Positions 16,262-53,414 of a stretch of DNA of 64,000 nucleotides are shown one piece after another. Below the pieces are notes generated by a model. That model did not search any database and had not been told where the DNA came from. It was given only the letters and a program-made list of their open reading frames with translations. A program made the translations under genes and the position numbers. Positions within the stretch are counted from its first letter, which is position 1, and every line of letters starts with the position of its first letter. This DNA is from an uncultured Clostridium sp. (lineage in GTDB: Bacteria; Bacillota; Clostridia; TANB77; CAG-508): contig CAOKPI010000002.1 in NCBI GenBank assembly GCA_948470605.1, positions 19,015-83,014 of the forward strand. The letters are read 5' to 3'.

Positions 16262-18578
16262 TTAACATGAGGATTTCCTTTTAAAAATTGATGAATACCG
16301 ATTTCTTAATTTTCCAGTACCCTTACCATGAACAATTCTGACTGTTTGAAGCTTACTAAGAGAAGCATCATCTAAAAATTTATCAATCACAAAAATAGAT
16401 TCTTCCACATGTAATCCAATCACATTTATTTCTGATTTTATCATTCTGGTTTTTGAAATAGAAGAAACACTCGTATTATTTACAGCAGAAGAACTGGTAT
16501 TTTTATTCGTTTTATGGGGTAATGTTAGGAATGCAACTGACACATTCATTTTTAAATTTCCCACTTGTACTTGAACCTCATTGGATTTAGAAACATGAGA
16601 AAGCACGATACCATTTTGACCAAAACTTGTTATAAATACTTCCATATTTGGTTTAATATCCTTTGCTTCTAAAGCATTTTTTGAATTGGTTAAAGGATGG
16701 ATAGTATTTGTCATAGCAGTGAGAGGAATCTCTTTAATCTTAACATTTAATGTATTCCTAGCATTTTCTAAATCTTTTCTATTTGTAGAAGAAGACATTT
16801 CTTTTATCATGTGATTGGCATCTTCTTTTGCTTGTATCAAAATATTCCTAGCTTCTATTTTAGCATGTTGGATGATATCTTGTTCTTGTTGTTTTAATTC
16901 TTTATTTTCTTTTTCTAAAGATTTTCTTAAATTAGAAATACGTTCTAACTCCTGCGAAATTTGTAATTTTTCTTTTTCTAGGGAAGATTTGTTATCATAA
17001 ATATTTTTTAATAAGTTTTCGATATCAATTTGATTCGATGTCATAAAAGATTGGGCTTTTGCAACAATAGCTTCATCTAATCCCAATTTTCGACTAATGG
17101 CAAAAGCATTACTTTTTCCAGGAATACCAACTAGTAGTTTATAAGTAGGGCTTAGTGTGGAAAGATTAAATTCAACAGAAGCATTTTCAAAACCATCTGT
17201 TACTAAAGCATATTGTTTTAATTCCTGATAATGAGTGGTAGCAATTGTCAAGCTTCCCATTTCTTTAAAATAGTCTAATAAACTAATAGCAAGATTAGCT
17301 CCTTCTAAAGGGTCAGTACCAGAACCCAATTCATCTACTAAAATTAAGGAATTTTCAGTAGCTTGTTTTGTAATTTCTACGATATTTAGCATATGAGAAG
17401 AAAAAGTGCTCAAAGAATCAAGAATACTTTGGTCATCTCCAATATCAGCAAAAATTTGGTCAAAAACATAAACGCTAGAATTTTCATCACAGGGAATATT
17501 AAGACCACAGCATGCCATACAAGTTAAAAGACCGACGGTTTTTAGCGTAACCGTTTTACCACCTGTGTTGGGACCTGTGATTAATAATACAGAAAAATCA
17601 TTGCCTAAATCGATTGAAATAGGAACTACTTTTTCTTTATCAATAAAAGGATGCCTAGCATTTTTAAAATGGATTTCTTTTTTGGTAGTAATGATTGGTG
17701 TAGTAGCTTTTAGCGAGTTTGAGAATTTTGCTTTGGCAAAGATAAAGTCTAATTGGGCAATTAAAGTAACATCTAATTCTAATTCTTCACGATAAGGAGA
17801 AAATAATTCTGTTAATTCTTGCAGAATTTTTTCTATTTCTAATGTTTCTTCTTTTTTCAAACCATTTAATTCATTATTCATTTCAAAAACAGAAATAGGC
17901 TCGATAAAAACAGTAGAACCAGCATTAGAAATATCATGAATAAACCCTTTTATTTGAGAACGATATTCCTCTTTTATAGGAATGACAAATCTGTCATTTC
18001 GAAGGGTAACAATATTTTCTTGGATATATTTTGAATAAGTAGATGAGTGAAGCATGTCATTTAGTTTCGCTCGAATGTCTTGTTCTAATTTTTTTTGTTT
18101 TTTTCGTAAGGATTGTAATGTTTTGGAGGCTCTGTCATCGATGGTATCTTCATCCAAAATGCATTTTGATATTCTATCTGTTATACTTTTATTAGTATAT
18201 AGTTTTGAAAACAGATTAGCCAAAATGGGGTAGTCCGAGTTATCTAAAAAATCTTTCTTAAAATAATCTTTTAATTCTTGTGATAGCTGAAAAATATGAG
18301 CTAGATTTAAAAGAGATTTAGCAGATAAAGGATGATGGCTCTCTATTTTTTTTAATGCTATGGTAATGTCAGCAATTTCAAAAAAGGAAGGAGTGGTATT
18401 ACGGTAGGATAAATTAACAGCTTCACCGCGTTTCTTGTAACAGCTGTTCAACTTTTGCTTTTTCAATGCTAGGTACTAGGGTAGAAGCAAGTTGTTTTCC
18501 TTGTTTGGTAATACAAAAATTGCTTACCATTTCTACGATTTTATAAAATTCTAATTTTTCTAAAAAGTTTGTATTCAT
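16262..18578 (-). pseudogene. mutS2: endonuclease MutS2, disrupted by two +1 frameshifts near 18426-18428 and 16298-16300
   Basis: The true N-terminus MNTNFLEKLEFYKIVE..LLQET, with an AGGAGA RBS, runs into TGA right after CGG. The 734-aa central frame carries the MutS ATPase motif GPNTGGKTV. The Smr C-terminus ([23 protein letters not shown]) lies in a third frame. Each junction reads NNN-CGG-stop or continues as NNN-(C)GGT. Confidence 0.85.
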
Positions 18579-18652
18579 GATTCATCTCCTAAAAATTGAT
18601 AGTAGTATTATACCTAGATTTCTGATAATAGTCAATGTCAATTAACAGGTTT

Positions 18653-19043
18653 GTGACAAGAGGGGCGCCCTTTTTTGTCACACAAAATAATTCAAAAAAG
18701 GTTATTATGATTTTTTATTTGCAACTCCCAACATCACACAGTCTGTAAATTTTTAACAGACTGTAGTTCGTCGGTCCCCACGAATTGTTGCTTCATAAAA
18801 AATATAATAACCTTTGTGAGAAATAAAGGAAATGTGACAAGAGGGGAGTCCTTTTTTGTCACATAAAATAATTCAAAAAAGGTTATTATGATTTTTTATT
18901 TGCAACTCCCAACATCACACAGTCTGTAAATTTTTAACAGACTGTAGTTCGTTGGTCCCCGCGAATTGTTGCTTCATAAAAAATATAATAACCTTTGTGA
19001 GAAATAAAAGAAATGTGACAAAAAAGGGCGCCCCTCTTGTCAC
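18653..19043. repeat. tandem array of 2.15 copies of a 181-bp unit; each unit begins with a GTGACAA..GGGCGCCC..TTGTCAC hairpin and contains the ~110-bp core repeat
   Basis: Units start at 18653, 18834 and 19015, with about 95% identity between them. The terminal hairpin is inverted. The core matches the repeats at 25786-26007 (reverse complement) and 28104-28222. Confidence 0.8.
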
Positions 19044-19141
19044 AACCTATTAATTATGCACTTGCAAAAAAGACGAACTTATGATATAAAGGAAACAGAG
19101 AAAAGATAGAAAGAAAAACATCAGGAAAATGAGGTGAAAAA

Positions 19142-19876
19142 ATGATAAAGGCATATGCAAAATCAGATGTAGGCAGAATAAGAGAAGTGAATCAAGATTA
19201 CTATTATCTATCTGATTCATTAGACAAAGTACAGTTATACATGTTAGCAGATGGAATGGGAGGATATAATGGCGGAGAAATTGCTAGTGAATTAGCCATA
19301 CAGACGGCAAAGAGTTATATTGAGAATAATTTCGAAGAAGTAAGCAAAGATAAAGATAGTATTATTCAACTAGTTGCCAGTAGTATGGAATATGCTAATA
19401 TGGTGGTATATGAAAAGTCAAAAGAAAGTAAAGAATTAGAAGGAATGGGTACTACTTTAGAAATTTGTTTAATATATAATAACAGAGCATTTATCGGACA
19501 TATAGGGGATAGTAGAATTTACAGAATTCGAAAAGGATTTATGAGAAAATTAACACAAGACCATAGTTATGTTCAAAAGTTAGTAAAAGATGGAACCATT
19601 ACACAAGAAGAGGCAATTCATCATCCACAAAAAAACATGTTAATGAAAGCCTTAGGATGTAATGCATTTGTAGAGCCTGATGTTATGGTAAAGGGATTTT
19701 TAAAAGATGATATTATTGTAATGGGGTCAGATGGATTAACCAATATGGTTCCACAAGAAGAAATTTTTCGTTTAGCTAAAAAAGATATAGAACAAGCACC
19801 AAAAGAATTGGTAGAAATGGCAAATCAAAATGGTGGATATGACAATATAACAGTTGTTATTATAAAAAATATATAG
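19142..19876 (+). CDS. stp: PP2C-family Ser/Thr protein phosphatase (Stp/PrpC)
   Basis: It has the motifs GRIREVNQD, LADGMGGYNGGEIAS and GSDGL. Confidence 0.9.
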   Translation: MIKAYAKSDVGRIREVNQDYYYLSDSLDKVQLYMLADGMGGYNGGEIASELAIQTAKSYIENNFEEVSKDKDSIIQLVASSMEYANMVVYEKSKESKELEGMGTTLEICLIYNNRAFIGHIGDSRIYRIRKGFMRKLTQDHSYVQKLVKDGTITQEEAIHHPQKNMLMKALGCNAFVEPDVMVKGFLKDDIIVMGSDGLTNMVPQEEIFRLAKKDIEQAPKELVEMANQNGGYDNITVVIIKNI

Positions 19877-22008: not shown

Positions 22009-22911
22009 ATGCAAGGAATTATCATAGAAAATATCGCTAATTTATATCGAGTTTCCCCACTTACTCCCGGAACCAGTGGGGACAAAATCTATGAAGCAAC
22101 GGCGAGAGGAAAATTCAAAAAAGAAGAAATCTCACCTGTTGTAGGGGACTTTGTTGAATTTGAAATCACAGATGAGGTAAACAAAAAGGCAGTTATCAAC
22201 CAAATATTAGATAGAAAAGTGTATGTAAAAAGACCTAAACTTGCTAATATTACACAAATTGTATTTGTTGTTTCTAGCAAAGACCCTAAGCCAGATTTAT
22301 TGATGTTAGATAAACAATTAGCATTTGCTGAGTTCTTGGGAATTAAATCATTAATTGTATTAAATAAAACAGATTTAGATAGTAAAAAAGAATTTAAAGC
22401 AATTCGAGAAATATATGAGAACATAGGCTATGATGTTATAGAAACAGAAGCAAAAAATCAAAAGGGAATTGACCAACTAAAACATAAATTAAAAAATAAT
22501 GTCAACGCATTTTCTGGCAATTCAGGAGTGGGAAAATCTACTTTGATAAATGGTATTTTTGGACAAGATATGACATTAGAGGGAGAAATTAGTCAAAGGA
22601 ATAAAAGAGGAAAAAATACAACAACAGCTATTAAGTTATATCAAATAGATGATAATACTTATATTGCTGATACACCTGGATTTTCAACATTTTCTATGGA
22701 AGAAATTAAAAGGAAAGAATTAGCCAATTACTTTGTGGAATTTAAAAGTAAGATTGCAAATTGTGAGTTTGTGGGTTGTACTCATATTAAAGAGGAGAAT
22801 TGTGGTATCAAAAAAGCAATACAAAATGGAGAAATTTATCCAGCAAGATATGAAAGATTTTGTAAAATACAACAACAATTAAAAGAAAGAGAGGAAAAAA
22901 AGAAATGGTAG
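22009..22911 (+). CDS. rsgA: ribosome small-subunit-dependent GTPase A
   Basis: It has the circularly permuted GTPase motifs VLNKTDL, GNSGVGKSTLIN and DTPGF, and the zinc finger CEFVGCTHIKEENC. Codons 16-24 (nt 22054-22080) are a GC-rich hairpin homologous to the MITE terminal inverted repeats. Confidence 0.9.
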   Translation: MQGIIIENIANLYRVSPLTPGTSGDKIYEATARGKFKKEEISPVVGDFVEFEITDEVNKKAVINQILDRKVYVKRPKLANITQIVFVVSSKDPKPDLLMLDKQLAFAEFLGIKSLIVLNKTDLDSKKEFKAIREIYENIGYDVIETEAKNQKGIDQLKHKLKNNVNAFSGNSGVGKSTLINGIFGQDMTLEGEISQRNKRGKNTTTAIKLYQIDDNTYIADTPGFSTFSMEEIKRKELANYFVEFKSKIANCEFVGCTHIKEENCGIKKAIQNGEIYPARYERFCKIQQQLKEREEKKKW

Positions 22912-25785: not shown

Positions 25786-26007
25786 GTCCCCACTGGTTCC
25801 GGGTTTAAATGGGGATGCAATTGTAATTATATTTTAAATTAAAAGTTTATTCTATTTTTTATACAGTAACAATTCGGGGGGACCAGCAAGCGTACAGTCT
25901 GTTAAAGATTTACAGACTGTGCGATGCTGGGAGTTACAAATAAAAACTAGAATAAACTTTTTTATAAAAATTAATGCATCCCATTTAAACCCGGAACCAG
26001 TGGGGAC
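25786..26007. mobile_element. 222-bp MITE-like element with nested inverted repeats: an outer ~32-bp repeat GTCCCCACTGGTTCCGGGTTTAAATGGGGATG and an inner ~15-bp repeat, surrounding the conserved ~110-bp core in reverse orientation
   Basis: 25786-25820 is the reverse complement of 25973-26007. The core at 25861-25975 matches the reverse complement of 18706-18810. There is no ORF. Confidence 0.75.
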
Positions 26008-28071: not shown

Positions 28072-28103
28072 CTAATTAATAATTTTATAAAAGTTTATTA
28101 TAT

Positions 28104-28222
28104 TTTTATTTGTAACTCCCAACTGCATAACAGACTGTAAACAAAATTTCTAAAAATTTTGTACAGTCTATAATTTGTCGGTCCCCCCGAATTGTTACTA
28201 CATAAAAATATAATAAATTTTA
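28104..28222 (+). repeat. solo copy of the ~110-bp core repeat (variant with an extended central hairpin)
   Basis: The sequence is TTTATTTGTAACTCCCAAC..ACAGACTGT..ACAGTCT..GTCGGTCCCCCCGAATTGTTACTACATAAAAATATAATAA. Confidence 0.7.
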
Positions 28223-28364
28223 CAAAAAATATTACAAGTAATAAGATGAAAGGTTGGGGTATAAATTAAGAGGTTAAATTTTAATCCCAGCTTTTTGGAT
28301 TTTATGCTTTTTTATCATTAAAATGTATCTTAATGGATTGATACAAAAAACAAGGAGGAAAATT

Positions 28365-28970: not shown

Positions 28971-28980
28971 AAAGAAAAAT

Positions 28981-29100
28981 GAGACAAGAGGGACAGATTT
29001 CTTTTGTCTCATAAATTTGGATAGAAAAATGTCGAATAAAGAAAATGATAAAAAACGACAAAAAATGTGAGACAAAAGAAACCTGTCCCTATTGTCTCAA
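28981..29100. repeat. 120-bp MITE-like element made of two 32-nt TGAGACAA..GGGACAG../..CTGTCCC..TTGTCTCA hairpins in mutually inverted orientation around a conserved 56-nt spacer, directly upstream of clpX
   Basis: Hairpin A lies at 28981-29012 and hairpin B at 29069-29100. The copy at 38295-38416 has about 90% similarity. Confidence 0.75.
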
Positions 29101-32713: not shown

Positions 32714-32746
32714 ATGTGGGACATTATCTACGTCCCCATGTCCCAA
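32714..32746. repeat. REP-like hairpin TGGGACAT-TATCTACGTCCCC-ATGTCCCA between the response regulator and the kinase
   Basis: It contains the reverse complement of GGGGACGTAGATA, the same core as the elements at 51877-51904 and 53414-53448. Confidence 0.65.
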
Positions 32747-38294: not shown

Positions 38295-38416
38295 ATGAGA
38301 CAATGGGGACAGGTTTGAATTGTCTCATAAATTAAGTAGAAAAATGTCAAAATAAGAAGAAGACACAAAAAGTGACAAAAAAAGTGAGACAATTGAAACC
38401 TGTCCCTATTGTCTCA
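38295..38416. repeat. second full copy of the 120-bp double-hairpin TGAGACAA element, between thyA and folA
   Basis: Hairpin A lies at 38295-38327 and hairpin B at 38385-38416. The spacer is about 85% identical to the copy at 28981-29100. Confidence 0.75.
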
Positions 38417-46014: not shown

Positions 46015-46081
46015 TTGGTTTACCTCCTTTTTTTTTCTTTATAACATGTATATTAGGAGGTAGATAAGTTTATGACAAAAA

Positions 46082-46113
46082 TCTGTGACAACAGGGGCGT
46101 CCCTTTTTGTCAC
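46082..46113. repeat. GTGACAA..GGGGCGTCCC..TTGTCAC hairpin, the same family as the 18653 array hairpins
   Basis: tgtgacaacaggggcgtccctttttgtcacat. Confidence 0.6.
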
Positions 46114-46282
46114 ATTCAAATTATTGATAAAAGGTTATTATAGTAAAAAAAAACAGAGAGAACTCTGTTTTTTATATTGTAGGAAAGTTCTCCTAGTAGG
46201 AGGGCTTTCTGTACAAGATAAATATGGGAATTTATAGAATTTCTTTGCGGTTGCCACCGCTTAGAAATTCTTAAATTCGTTT

Positions 46283-51300: not shown

Positions 51301-51894
51301 CAAATTGATGCACAAGCAACTATTAATACTATGCAATTACGAGAGTTAGATGAGCAGATGAGTTCACAAATGTTAATGGAAGAAGGAGTAAGAAATGAGA
51401 AACCAAAATTTGTGGATGGGCAAAAAATAAAATATATAGGAATTATTACTTCGATTAAAAAGAAATATACAAAAAATAATAAGATTATGGCTTTTGTTAC
51501 GATAGAAGATTTATATGGTACAGCTGAAATCATTGTATTTGAGAATGCTTACTTAACAGCAGGTAAGAGTTTAGTGGAAGAAAATATTGTTGTGGTCCAT
51601 GGTCGTTTGAGCATTCGAGAAGATGATACGACTACTATTATTGCTAATGAATTAAAAGATTTTGGCAATCAAAAACAGAAGATTTTTACCCTTGATATTA
51701 CAAATGCTAATGACGAACAAAAGGAAAAGTTAAGAGGGGCTTTGCGATATTTTAATGGGGATAGAAATAATATGAATGTGCAAATTAGGATAGAAGAAGA
51801 ACTAAAACCATGTGGACAGATTTATTGGACAGAGCAGATTCAAGGAGTGTTTGAAGATATTTTGGGAAAAGAAAATGTGGACATGGGGACGTAG
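48313..51894 (+). CDS. dnaE: DNA polymerase III alpha subunit (DnaE-type)
   Basis: The PHP domain is HLHIHSEFSLLDGA. The polymerase core motifs are GPGRGSGAGS and PDFDVDF. An OB-fold C-terminus is present. It is 1193 aa. The last 5 codons and the stop lie inside a REP-like hairpin. Confidence 0.95.
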   Translation: MSKFVHLHIHSEFSLLDGANRIKDLPVRAKELGMEAIAITDHGAMYGAIDFYKACKKEGIKPIIGCEVYVAPRSRFDKEPNIDNRYNHLILLAKNQQGYQNLSKLVSIGFVDGYYYKPRIDIEVLEKYHEGLICLSACLAGSVNQSLLKGDNEKAEEIALWHKKVFGEDYYIEIQNNGIKEQVLANQKLIALARKLEIPLVATNDAHYLKREDAYNHEVLLCIQTGKRMSDMDRMRFETDELYVKSPEEMIEYFKSFPDAIENTVKIAEKCNVEFEFGHTILPNYDVPEEFPTHYDYFKKLCDDGIKNRYGENPSQEILDRMEYELGVIQKMGYVDYFLIVWDFIHYAKTHGIPVGPGRGSGAGSIIAYAIEITDIDPMKYGLLFERFLNPERISMPDFDVDFCYEHRQDVIDYVSEKYGHDHVSQIITFGTMAAKMVIRDVARVLDVAYAEADSLAKMIPNELHITIQKALEQNKELKERYETDETVKKVLDIAMALEGMPRQASTHACGVVITKEPVDTYVPLYVRDDQISTQYIMTTLEELGLLKMDFLGLRTLTVIQDTIDLVKENRGIDVEFDKEMADPKVYKLWQEGKSCGIFQFESQGMTNFMKELKPDCLEDLIAGVSLYRPGPMDQIPRYVKGKLNPGHNEYTHPRLEPILNVTYGCMVYQEQVMQIVRDLAGYSLGRADLVRRAMGKKKLDVMAKEREVFIHGQVDDEGNVVVPGCVRNGIDEASANKIFDEMAEFAKYAFNKSHAACYAVIAYRTAYLKAYYPAEFMAATLNSFLGNLDKIPQYIDECKLLGIEILKPEINKSDAKFTTEYDGEFGESDPKLPISKKQSTTELLSQSKAKIRFGLGSIKNVGTVPVNSVVKERRENGPYKSFTDFCERIADEAVNKKCIESLIKAGAFDEFEQTRSTLLASFEGIIDSIQSSKKRGLAGQVSMFDLGSEQEKEEMNEVKYKFYEQEEMSNKELLSIEKEMLGIYISGHPLEKLRSQIDAQATINTMQLRELDEQMSSQMLMEEGVRNEKPKFVDGQKIKYIGIITSIKKKYTKNNKIMAFVTIEDLYGTAEIIVFENAYLTAGKSLVEENIVVVHGRLSIREDDTTTIIANELKDFGNQKQKIFTLDITNANDEQKEKLRGALRYFNGDRNNMNVQIRIEEELKPCGQIYWTEQIQGVFEDILGKENVDMGT

Positions 51895-51904
51895 ATGATG
51901 TCCC
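51877..51904. repeat. REP-like hairpin GTGGACATGGGGACGTAGATGATGTCCC overlapping the dnaE stop
   Basis: It carries the GGGGACGTAGAT core in plus orientation and is inverted relative to the copy at 53414-53448. Confidence 0.65.
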
Positions 51905-52011
51905 TATTTGTGCCTTTTTCTATAAAAAATTATGAGAAATAGTGTTGAGGTGAAATTTTTTGTTAATGAAATAAGTAATAAATGATAAGAATTTTGAAAG
52001 AGGAAACGATT

Positions 52012-52350
52012 ATGGAAAAAATTGAAATGTTAGAAGGAATTTTGAATAGTTATCCATATCCTATTGTTTTTGTAGATAATGATTATAGGATTAGATTTAT
52101 GAATAAAAATGCACAATACCATTATCGCAAAAAGGGAAAAAATCTAATAGGAAAGAGCATATTTGATTGTCATAATGAAAAATCTATTGGAAAAATAAAA
52201 AACACTTATGAAGAAATTAAAAAAACTGAAAAAGATGTATTTATATTTGTAAATTCTAGAAATCAAAGAGTTTATATGCAAGGTGTCAAAAATCAAAAAG
52301 GCGAATGGATAGGATTTATAGAAAGATTTGAATTAAACTTGCAAATGTAA
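52012..52350 (+). CDS. small PAS-domain protein
   Basis: The sequence YPIVFVDNDYRIRFMNKNAQ..GKSIFDCH is a PAS-fold signature. It is 113 aa. Confidence 0.5.
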   Translation: MEKIEMLEGILNSYPYPIVFVDNDYRIRFMNKNAQYHYRKKGKNLIGKSIFDCHNEKSIGKIKNTYEEIKKTEKDVFIFVNSRNQRVYMQGVKNQKGEWIGFIERFELNLQM

Positions 52351-52364
52351 ATAAAATAAGATTG

Positions 52365-52425
52365 CTACACTGCAATGGTTTCATTTATTTGTGAGAAAGT
52401 AAAATGAAACCATTGTAGTGTAGTA
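52365..52425 (+). terminator. very long hairpin (22-bp stem, 1 mismatch) after the PAS gene; a terminator or structured RNA
   Basis: ctacactgcaatggtttcattt..aaatgaaaccattgtagtgtag. Confidence 0.5.
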
Positions 52426-52574
52426 ATTTCTATCACTTATTATACTATGCTATTAAACAAAGCTTTTCAAAATATTTAAACATAGGATATTTAAAAATTC
52501 ACAAAAAAGCGTGCAATTTTATGGGAAATGTGATACCATAATTATACGAAAATCATTTTAATAATTTTATCAAG

Positions 52575-53414
52575 TTGTTTTATTCAAATAATTTTAATCA
52601 TGAACTAAATCCAATCATTAAAAAACAAAAAGAGGAGGTGAATGCCATACCGAGAGTAGCAAGAAAAAATCATATAAGTCAATATTTTCATATTGTTGTT
52701 AAGGGAATAAATGCAGAATATATATTTAGAAAAAAAGAGTATATGGAAAAATATAAGAATTTATTGAAAAAGAATGCAAAGAATCATCAAATCAATATAC
52801 TTGCTTACTGTATTATGAATAATCATGCCCATATATTATTATATACAAAAGAAAAAACTGAAATGGCTAGTTTTATGCAAAAAACCAATACTAGCTATGC
52901 TAAATATTATAATTTTTATGAAGATAGAGAGGGATATGTTTTTAAAGGACGATATTATACACAAAATATTTTATCATTAAAACAATTATATAATTGTTTG
53001 GTTTATATCCATAAAAATCCAATAAAGGCAAATTTAGTAACCAAAATGGAAGATTATCCGTTTTCAAGTTATCACGAATTCTTTAAAGATAAAGAGATAA
53101 TAGATGAACAAAGTATAAAATTGTTAGAATTAAAATTAGATAATTATTATAATGATTTAATAAAAATACATAGAATGGAAGATATTACAGATATATTTGA
53201 TATAAAAGAATACATAGATGCCCAACAAATCTTAAGAGAATATGAAAATAATTACAAGCAACCAATTAAAAAATTGAAGGAACAAAACGAAATTTTAGAA
53301 AAGATAATTGTTGATTTAAATGAAAAGGCAGGAATGCCAATTAGAAAGATAGCAGAAAAGATAAGTGTTAATAAAAACAAAGTGAATAAAATTTTAAAAG
53401 AAAAAAGAAAATAG
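52575..53414 (+). CDS. Y1 HUH transposase-family protein (IS200/RAYT-like REP-associated tyrosine transposase) with a C-terminal HTH-like extension
   Basis: The HUH motif is NNHAHILL. The catalytic Tyr context is FKGRYYTQNI. The N-terminal FHIVVKG is typical of the Y1_Tnp fold. The gene is flanked by inverted GGGGACGTA[G/C]AT hairpins. Confidence 0.65.
   Translation: MFYSNNFNHELNPIIKKQKEEVNAIPRVARKNHISQYFHIVVKGINAEYIFRKKEYMEKYKNLLKKNAKNHQINILAYCIMNNHAHILLYTKEKTEMASFMQKTNTSYAKYYNFYEDREGYVFKGRYYTQNILSLKQLYNCLVYIHKNPIKANLVTKMEDYPFSSYHEFFKDKEIIDEQSIKLLELKLDNYYNDLIKIHRMEDITDIFDIKEYIDAQQILREYENNYKQPIKKLKEQNEILEKIIVDLNEKAGMPIRKIAEKISVNKNKVNKILKEKRK

Follow-up and report, generated by a model that had tools for sequence, protein, structure and literature searches.

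Bacterial interspersed mosaic elements (BIMEs) of enterobacteria consist of alternating repetitive extragenic palindromes (REPs) and other conserved motifs, vary between strains in tandem copy number and have IHF and gyrase as known binding partners. ERIC/IRU, Correia elements, RUP and the Rickettsia palindromic elements are palindromic intergenic repeats as well, with an unknown mobiliser. The reference systems in which REPs, or inverted REP pairs (REPINs), occur together with a RAYT transposase are those of E. coli and Pseudomonas (Nunvar 2010; Bertels & Rainey 2011, PMC3116915; Bertels 2017, PMC5581495), and the literature consulted on REP/REPIN-RAYT deals almost only with Proteobacteria. 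A RAYT group extending to Clostridia has been recorded, with abundant REPs being linked only to groups 2 and 3 (PMC5581495). In a study that makes no mention of Clostridia or Firmicutes, the REP super-families are defined by a tag, GTAG (or CGTC), which marks one end of the palindrome (PMC3733652).

In a stretch of 64,000 nucleotides from an uncultured Clostridium sp. (the window, which is the whole of the DNA analysed here), a repeat block is situated at 18652-19044 between mutS2 and stp. We consider this block to be probably a mosaic palindromic repeat of a REP/RAYT system in uncultured low-GC gut Clostridia. Its anatomy is well defined, it belongs to a dispersed family, a REP-flanked RAYT gene is present in the same window, and the repeat is polymorphic in copy number and in orientation. 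The closest known kind is a REP/REPIN-RAYT system with a BIME-like mosaic organisation, most defining features of which are found here: numerous short extragenic hairpins, the repetition of REPs as inverted pairs, a HUH/Y1 gene that is single-copy, stands amid housekeeping genes and has inverted REPs on its flanks, and some REPINs resembling a RAYT locus from which the gene has been deleted (L168). The window thus contains a clear counterpart of REP/REPIN-RAYT in uncultured gut Clostridia. It differs from the reference systems in this clostridial host, in the coexistence of several stem families and in a RAYT protein with an extra C-terminal domain (an extension of about 100 aa). It also differs in a large module inside the REPIN, a 120-nt hairpin (hereafter the core) that is widely conserved, nested in many REPINs and also multiplying alone. 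Moreover, the REP families are unified by a loop motif and not by their stem: the GTAG/CGTC end tag is no general feature, the conserved motif being GGGGAC(G) inside the loop and not GTAG at the foot, and GTAG follows this loop motif only in GGACAT-type REPs. This mismatch concerns the definition of the super-families and not the REP concept itself. The system is therefore a tractable case for studying how a RAYT recognises its substrate and whether such repeats are selfish or domesticated.

The likeness to BIMEs lies in the mosaic of REPs in alternating orientation and in the strain-variable tandem copy number, whereas the sequences are unrelated and the non-REP module is here a 120-nt hairpin that is also dispersed by itself. 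To ERIC/IRU, Correia elements, RUP and the Rickettsia palindromic elements the core is similar in being a long imperfect palindrome of about 120-150 nt that is intergenic, occurs in both orientations, is conserved across species and encodes no transposase. This resemblance is one of general form only, as the core has no sequence similarity to these elements, has an asymmetric centre instead of termini as its conserved part, and is often nested in REP pairs. IS200/IS605 elements likewise have an enzyme of the Y1/HUH superfamily, hairpin substrates and an orientation bias relative to gene and replication strand, but no tnpA/tnpB element with left and right ends is found here, and for the RAYT of the window the IS200 model scores far under the RAYT model. 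The features discussed below are collected in Table 1.

Table 1. Positions of repeats, promoter-like sites and the RAYT gene in the window
Feature	Position	Strand	Remarks
Promoter-like TTGACT-17-TATAAT facing mutS2	18635-18607	-	Strong, 11/12; directly left of the array; promoter scan
Tandem units, each REP + spacer + core + spacer	18652-19013	+	Junction is the 8-nt TGTGACAA common to REP(+) and REP(-)
REP hairpin H, copy 1	18652-18682	+	TGTGACAA-GAGGGGCGCCCTTTT-TTGTCACA; left inverted-repeat arm
Core, copy 1	18697-18815	+	Long AT-rich stem; P1 GCAAC/GTTGC, bulge TCCCCACGAATT, P2 CCAAC/GTCGG, P3 ACAGTCTGT/ACAGACTGT
REP hairpin H, middle copy	18833-18863	+	GAGGGGAGTCC; 2 substitutions; start of the duplicated unit
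Core, copy 2	18878-18996	+	
REP hairpin H, inverted	19014-19044	-	Right inverted-repeat arm; 32/32 complementary to 18651-18682
Promoter-like TTGCAA-17-TATAAA facing stp	19062-19090	+	Directly right of the array; read by eye from the sequence
Second composite	25786-26007	-	Inverted pair of TCCCCAC..GTGGGGA-type REPs around the core at 25842-25963
Core copy	25842-25963	-	Recurrence search in the window
Diverged core	28078-28231	+	Extended tip hairpin; no REP flanks; orthologous to a copy in L025
REPIN of TGAGACAA-type REPs	28979-29099	.	Inverted pair, no core
Second TGAGACAA-type REPIN	38295-38416	.	No core
Solo REP H + spacer + first 12 nt of core stem	46084-46141	+	AAAGGTTATTAT
REP upstream of RAYT gene	51879-51903	+	GGACAT-GGGGACGTAGATG-ATGTCC
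RAYT-like HUH/Y1 transposase gene	52575-53414	+	279 aa; HAH residues 84-86, YIHKNP tyrosine motif at 144
REP at RAYT stop codon	53410-53440	-	GGACAT-GGGGACGTAGAT type, inverted

The array consists of two tandem 181-bp units (18652-18832 and 18833-19013), which a gap-free repeat finder aligned at 97% identity with differences at 6 of the 181 positions, and which Tandem Repeats Finder reported as 18652-19021 with period 181, 2.0 copies, 96% matches and a score of 698. The arms 18651-18682 and 19014-19045 were found to be 100% complementary over 32 nt. A composite repeat bounded on both sides by inverted hairpins, as stated in the original prediction, was thereby confirmed. Matches to the hairpin GTGACAAGAGGGGCGCCCTTTTTTGTCAC in the window start at 18653 (+, no mismatches), 18834 (+, 2 mismatches), 19015 (-, none) and 46085 (+, 3 mismatches), compared to none in shuffles. 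The earlier observation that both parts recur elsewhere in the window also held, cores being present at 25842-25963 and 28078-28231 and the hairpin at 46084-46114, with 0 such matches in shuffles.

Two independent assemblies from two other samples, L156 (ERZ14212252) and L157 (ERZ14651024), contain the same tandem as the window: their contigs continue from mutS2 across the first unit and the middle hairpin, in its variant form GAGGGGAGTCC, and on into the second unit, with identical variant bases. A conspecific contig from yet another sample, L165 (ERZ14212272), carries a single REP(+)-core-REP(-) unit in the orientation of the window. The comparison of copy number between strains that had been suggested with the original prediction thus yielded real variation, with two units in the window, L156 and L157 and one in L165. 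The collapse to one copy by which a false duplication was to be recognised did not occur, since L156 and L157 read through the array with the same variants. The array is a genuine, strain-variable tandem duplication, for which both chance and mis-assembly are excluded; more precisely, it is a local duplication of a dispersed repeat, with one extra 181-bp copy of the basic REP(+)-core-REP(-) unit.

That the unit was falsely duplicated in assembly, or that the array is a degenerate CRISPR, can for all practical purposes be dismissed. Repeats do commonly collapse or become duplicated in assemblies, and contigs of other samples break here, but the 6 differences between the units argue against an artefact, and the two independent assemblies with the same junction and variants already refute it. 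Short-read contigs carrying stp break exactly at the REP hairpin, as is expected for a dispersed repeat. In practice, such repeats hence break short-read MAG assemblies exactly at hairpins. As to CRISPR, which the original prediction had rightly rejected, the period is 181 bp, the 'spacers' are not unique and are in fact identical cores, and no cas genes adjoin the array, whose neighbours are mutS2, stp, prkC and rsgA.

On the left of the array, the minus-strand gene mutS2 starts at 18578. It was earlier described as disrupted, and indeed a 1-nt frameshift near its N-terminus (18423-18466) splits it into a 51-aa and a 734-aa ORF. The same split is present in L082, a relative with about 94% identity, and in 19 or more contigs of other samples, which points to a fixed pseudogene or a recoding site; the frameshift is unrelated to the array. 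On the right, stp starts at 19142 and is followed by prkC, rsgA and rpe. A further REP, of the TCCCCAC..GTGGGGA type, is located at 22050-22085, in the gap that separates prkC from the probable true start of rsgA; the listed rsgA ORF, with its start at 22009, would run through it. The promoter-like site facing stp is missing from the list of the scan tool because its final -10 base is A. Situated between two divergent promoter-like sites, the array probably lies outside both the mutS2 and the stp transcript. The suggestion that it affects the expression of stp-prkC or mutS2 was accordingly not supported, an influence via spacing, supercoiling or cruciform formation being possible. These repeats create strain-level polymorphism of length and orientation in promoter regions, here that of mutS2 and the stp-prkC operon.

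Orientation differs between relatives: in L082, the orthologous spacer contains a single unit, with its interior turned around with respect to the genes on either side, and at a second pair of orthologous loci (L023 compared to L048) orientation differs as well. Together with the 32-bp perfect inverted repeats around the segment and the quasi-palindromic nature of the hairpin, which is reminiscent of a recombinase site, this could indicate an inverton, in which phase variation of stp-prkC or mutS2 expression would arise from a recombinase inverting the DNA between the two opposed hairpins. However, the interior is reached by 8 conspecific contigs, every one of which has the orientation of the window, and orientation differs only between species-level relatives, so that inversion looks rare and fixed instead of a fast switch. 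Moreover, a convincing internal promoter is lacking (only 9/12 matches, with a number of sites equal to the shuffle expectation), no invertase gene was found beside any of the approximately 113 core copies, and many unrelated intergenic sites, convergent gene ends included, have this architecture too. We therefore regard an inverton as very improbable and return to the REP/RAYT reading.

The GTGACAA...GTCAC hairpin of the array is a REP. A census of hairpins of one design (a stem of 6-10 bp and a loop of 13-22 nt that starts with (G)GGGAC or GGGGCG and mostly has a T-rich end) yielded 14 in the window compared to 0.68 in shuffles. GGGGAC is the most over-represented hexamer of the window, with 18 occurrences where 4.2 are expected. 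The stem families in the window are GTGACAA, GAGACAA(T), GGGACAT, ATGATTTT and TCCCCAC, and the density of REPs in related MAGs reaches 3.7 per 10 kb. Inverted REP doublets are found in the array and at 25786-26007, 28979-29099 and 38295-38416, and the comparison with L025 gives one pair of a filled and an empty site, the REPIN at 28979-29099 being missing from the orthologous site of this relative. Where the window has the second composite (25786-26007), L025 has only a solo decayed hairpin. The site at 46077-46280 is occupied in the window by a solo REP H, a 12-nt remnant of the core stem and other sequence, and in the close relative L074 (972-1140) by a core devoid of REPs. The composite in its single-unit form REP(+)-core-REP(-) is common, occurring in L023, L082, L088 and L165, and REP(+)-spacer-core-spacer-REP(-) is thus the normal unit of a REPIN/BIME-like mosaic. 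As a separate observation, the position of the solo GGGACAT-type REP at 32717-32745 is taken in L025 (7493-7745) by two inverted REPs around a different cargo of about 200 nt, which is richer in GC and has long terminal inverted repeats of its own.

At a distance of 33 kb from the array, the ORF at 52575-53414 is likely the transposase gene of the REP/RAYT system. It matches Pfam Y1_Tnp (PF01797) with 38.8 bits (cut-off 23), and its best NCBIfam match is NF047646, 'REP-associated tyrosine transposase', over the full profile with 70.4 bits (E 1.4e-19), which falls just below the equivalog cut-off of 80. The IS200 model gave 21 bits only, and a search with an approximate IS200 query gave a single weak match, leading to this same ORF. 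The only PDB match is 4ER8, the E. coli TnpA-REP, and H84, H86 and Y144 are invariant in 12 homologues. At E <= 1e-10, 197 homologues were found; among the best 120 of these 197, most are about 255 aa long and the few that have a source name are from Clostridia MAGs.

In eight further contexts that were inspected in other Clostridia (L145, L147, L149, L152, L154, L166, L167 and L168), the RAYT homologue is a single gene among housekeeping genes, with a REP 5' and its reverse complement 3' of the gene in 7 of the 8; for L166, the closest REP copy on the downstream side is some 330 nt off, beside the gene that follows. These REPs have the stem-GGGGACG-TTTT-stem design (e.g. AGACAAGGGGACGGAGCTTTTGTCT and GGGAAATGGGGACGTTTTTCTTTTCCC), several of them, such as AGACAAGGGGACGGAGCTTTTGTCT, being close to H, and their likeness makes H an evident member of this design. 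The RAYT gene of the window is flanked by GGACAT-type REPs and not by the GTGACAA type of the array, and RAYT genes in other genomes by AGACAA-type REPs, which are very close to H. In L168 (13908-14152), a REPIN has as its interior a repeat of the 5' leader belonging to the contig's own RAYT gene, and this REPIN therefore appears to be a derivative from which the gene was deleted. No core was found beside RAYT in the contexts sampled. Two further features of the window were seen between the upstream REP and the RAYT gene: a 122-aa ORF with a PAS domain (51982-52350) and, in the gap between both genes (52362-52432), a hairpin CTACACTGCAATGGTTTCATTT...AAATGAAACCATTGTAGTGTAG whose arms, about 22 nt long, pair with one mismatch and enclose a loop of 21 nt.

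These observations can be combined in a model in which two inverted REPs form a REPIN-like unit, in this lineage with the conserved core of about 120 nt filling its interior, and in which a single-unit allele such as that of L165 would be the starting state for the array. The quasi-palindromic REP has TGTGACAA at its start in either orientation, REP(+) or REP(-), and unequal exchange or replication slippage at these 8 nt, between the start of REP(-) and that of REP(+), would produce REP(+)-core-REP(+)-core-REP(-) with, as deduced from the sequences, a period of exactly 181 bp. The same short direct repeats could mediate the precise loss of a doublet to a solo REP, for instance at 25.8 kb and 32.7 kb when the window is compared to L025, and the long inverted arms might allow an occasional inversion of the interior. 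By analogy with E. coli TnpA-REP and IS200/IS605, we infer that REPs are mobilised by RAYT: the RAYT-type HUH tyrosine transposase encoded at 52575-53414 would act on REP hairpins that are extruded in single-stranded DNA, assuming that one RAYT enzyme serves several REP stem families.

The terminal inverted repeats and the presence of filled and empty sites among relatives would also suit an ordinary MITE, moved by the cut-and-paste action of a DDE transposase on terminal inverted repeats and leaving target-site duplications, the more so as direct repeats AGAAAG (6 nt) and CCAAAAAG (8 nt) stand at two insertion borders. Yet these direct repeats are unequal in length, ambiguous and explicable by hairpin arms, one of them being the arm of a REP-like hairpin. 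The pairs of filled and empty sites have ambiguous or diverged borders and revealed no clear target-site duplications or target rule. Furthermore, the ends of the unit vary by copy and species whereas the centre is conserved, which is the reverse of DDE MITEs, and no DDE transposase or parent IS with such ends was present in 870 kb of loci. An ordinary MITE is thus a highly unlikely origin, and movement of REPs by a RAYT enzyme remains our preferred reading.

Cores, about 120 nt long, make up a dispersed family of their own and are also found alone. Scanning one genome per species with two conserved core motifs as query gave at least 108 loci; among the matches listed (80), all are from uncultured Clostridia or Clostridium MAGs, representing at least 18 assemblies. 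A scan of viral contigs for the core gave 0 matches. A full-text search of the literature found no description of the core or the REP motifs. The 111 distinct copies that were aligned come from 18 or more species-level MAGs and share the fold of a single long hairpin, with an AT-rich outer stem that varies between copies and stays complementary. The inner part comprises P1 (GYAAC/GTTRC), P2 (CCARY/RYTGG) and P3 (ACAGTCTGT/ACAGACTGT), with an asymmetric internal loop between P1 and P2 (TC at the 5' side, TCCCCNCGAATT at the 3' side), a second internal loop between P2 and P3, and a variable tip that sometimes bears an extra hairpin of 20-30 nt. The asymmetric bulge TCCCCNCGAATT is kept in nearly all copies.

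The stems covary strongly: 95.6% of the stem cells are paired, compared to 85.4% in shuffles and 30-47% with slid partners, double changes number 333 against 99.6 +/- 6.9 in shuffles, and 19 of the 28 pairs show compensatory changes. Such very strong covariation, together with the bulge that is unchanged between covarying stems, could be the sign of a structured RNA formed by the core or by the unit in its entirety, for instance a terminator or stabiliser acting in cis, a site of processing or a family of small RNA genes; the array would then be an RNA gene or a UTR element that has been duplicated. With respect to the genes on either side, the intergenic cores are co-directional in 52 cases and opposite in 17 (16 are convergent and 12 divergent), and many begin shortly past the stop codon of the upstream gene, both of which would suit an RNA. 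So would the motif ACTCCCA, intact in 9 out of 9 further cores from a metagenome scan with P3 only, in which the bulge was nearly intact as well; as this P3-anchored sample was not chosen on ACTCCCA, conservation of the motif is not a mere selection effect.

Conversely, Rfam gave 0 matches in the window at the gathering thresholds, and at E <= 10 its best match was an unrelated one of 22 bits. A quarter to a third of the cores are antisense to their neighbours, copies are gained and lost between close relatives, and the units of the array, with divergent promoter-like sites to their left and right, are probably part of neither transcript. The orientation of cores is also biased with respect to GC skew (74:39), as expected for transposition of single-stranded DNA; from GC skew, a bias tied to the replication strand could not be told from one tied to transcription. 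Wobble states on one side of a pair are rare and strand-symmetric (by our own count about 31 G-T and about 31 A-C cells). In the cores L020:2660-2786 and L092:47-179, the second internal loop has become a perfect palindrome (AAGCTT/AAGCTT and AAGATT/AATCTT, respectively), a conversion that suggests template-directed correction of a quasi-palindrome. The rare, symmetric wobbles and these two palindromes fit a Watson-Crick DNA palindrome with template-directed correction better than an RNA-specific structure. We therefore lean toward a role of the core at the DNA level over one as RNA, and consider the structured RNA explanation for the array improbable. Of the more specific RNA candidates, a riboswitch or 5'-UTR element was weakened by an upstream stop that is nearer than the downstream start and by an orientation bias of only 3:1, and HDV-like and hammerhead ribozymes, T-loops and K-turns were dropped by eye, the order of motifs being unfit.

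How the core itself spreads may differ from how the REPs do. Of 107 cores, some 25-30, or roughly a quarter to a third, have an inverted pair of REPs at symmetric distances on both sides, these REPs being of the family present in the host itself. In the CALXBW genome, cores are numerous and REPs are at chance level, so something else may move or maintain the core. In 870 kb of loci, no gene such as a transposase, reverse transcriptase or recombinase was recurrently found beside cores, the only recurrent neighbours being orthologous housekeeping clusters. Close relatives differ at core sites, where the core is present, absent or replaced, and many orthologous cores persist between species with flanks that are 76-90% identical. 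With ascertainment allowed for, the divergence of these cores is about that of the flanking, mostly coding DNA, and since they are no more conserved than their flanks, selection at the level of the locus is not proven. It is conceivable, if rather doubtful, that the core is a new and selectively maintained structured module, acting as single-stranded DNA or RNA, and not a passive filler; if so, this module and the multi-family REP population would jointly be the first described Firmicutes REPIN-RAYT system with conserved cargo. GTCCCC within the bulge TCCCCNCGAATT is the exact complement of the REP loop motif GGGGAC, and the core could be a second substrate, a partner or a regulator of RAYT, or an element that the host has domesticated, with conservation at orthologous sites in different species.

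Two other types of sequence share part of the core, a resemblance that we judged to be coincidental, so that neither the phage-like, promoter-linked element with the P3 hairpin nor the long tandem arrays were retained as relatives. The hairpin ACAGTCTGTAA..AACAGACTGTA also forms part of another conserved element, which is about 150 nt long, has the T7-promoter-like AAGACTCACTTATAT at its end and occurs in environmental metagenomes (L120, L121/L138, L128, L134, L135/L140 and L137); in L128 this element, which has no Rfam match, is located between the 5S rRNA and tRNA-Asn. Five further loci (L118, L123, L124, L133 and L136) are long tandem arrays built on CCAAACAGTCTGTAAGTATCCCCTGTGCCAAACAGACTGTAA, with periods of 80-325 nt and up to 20 copies.
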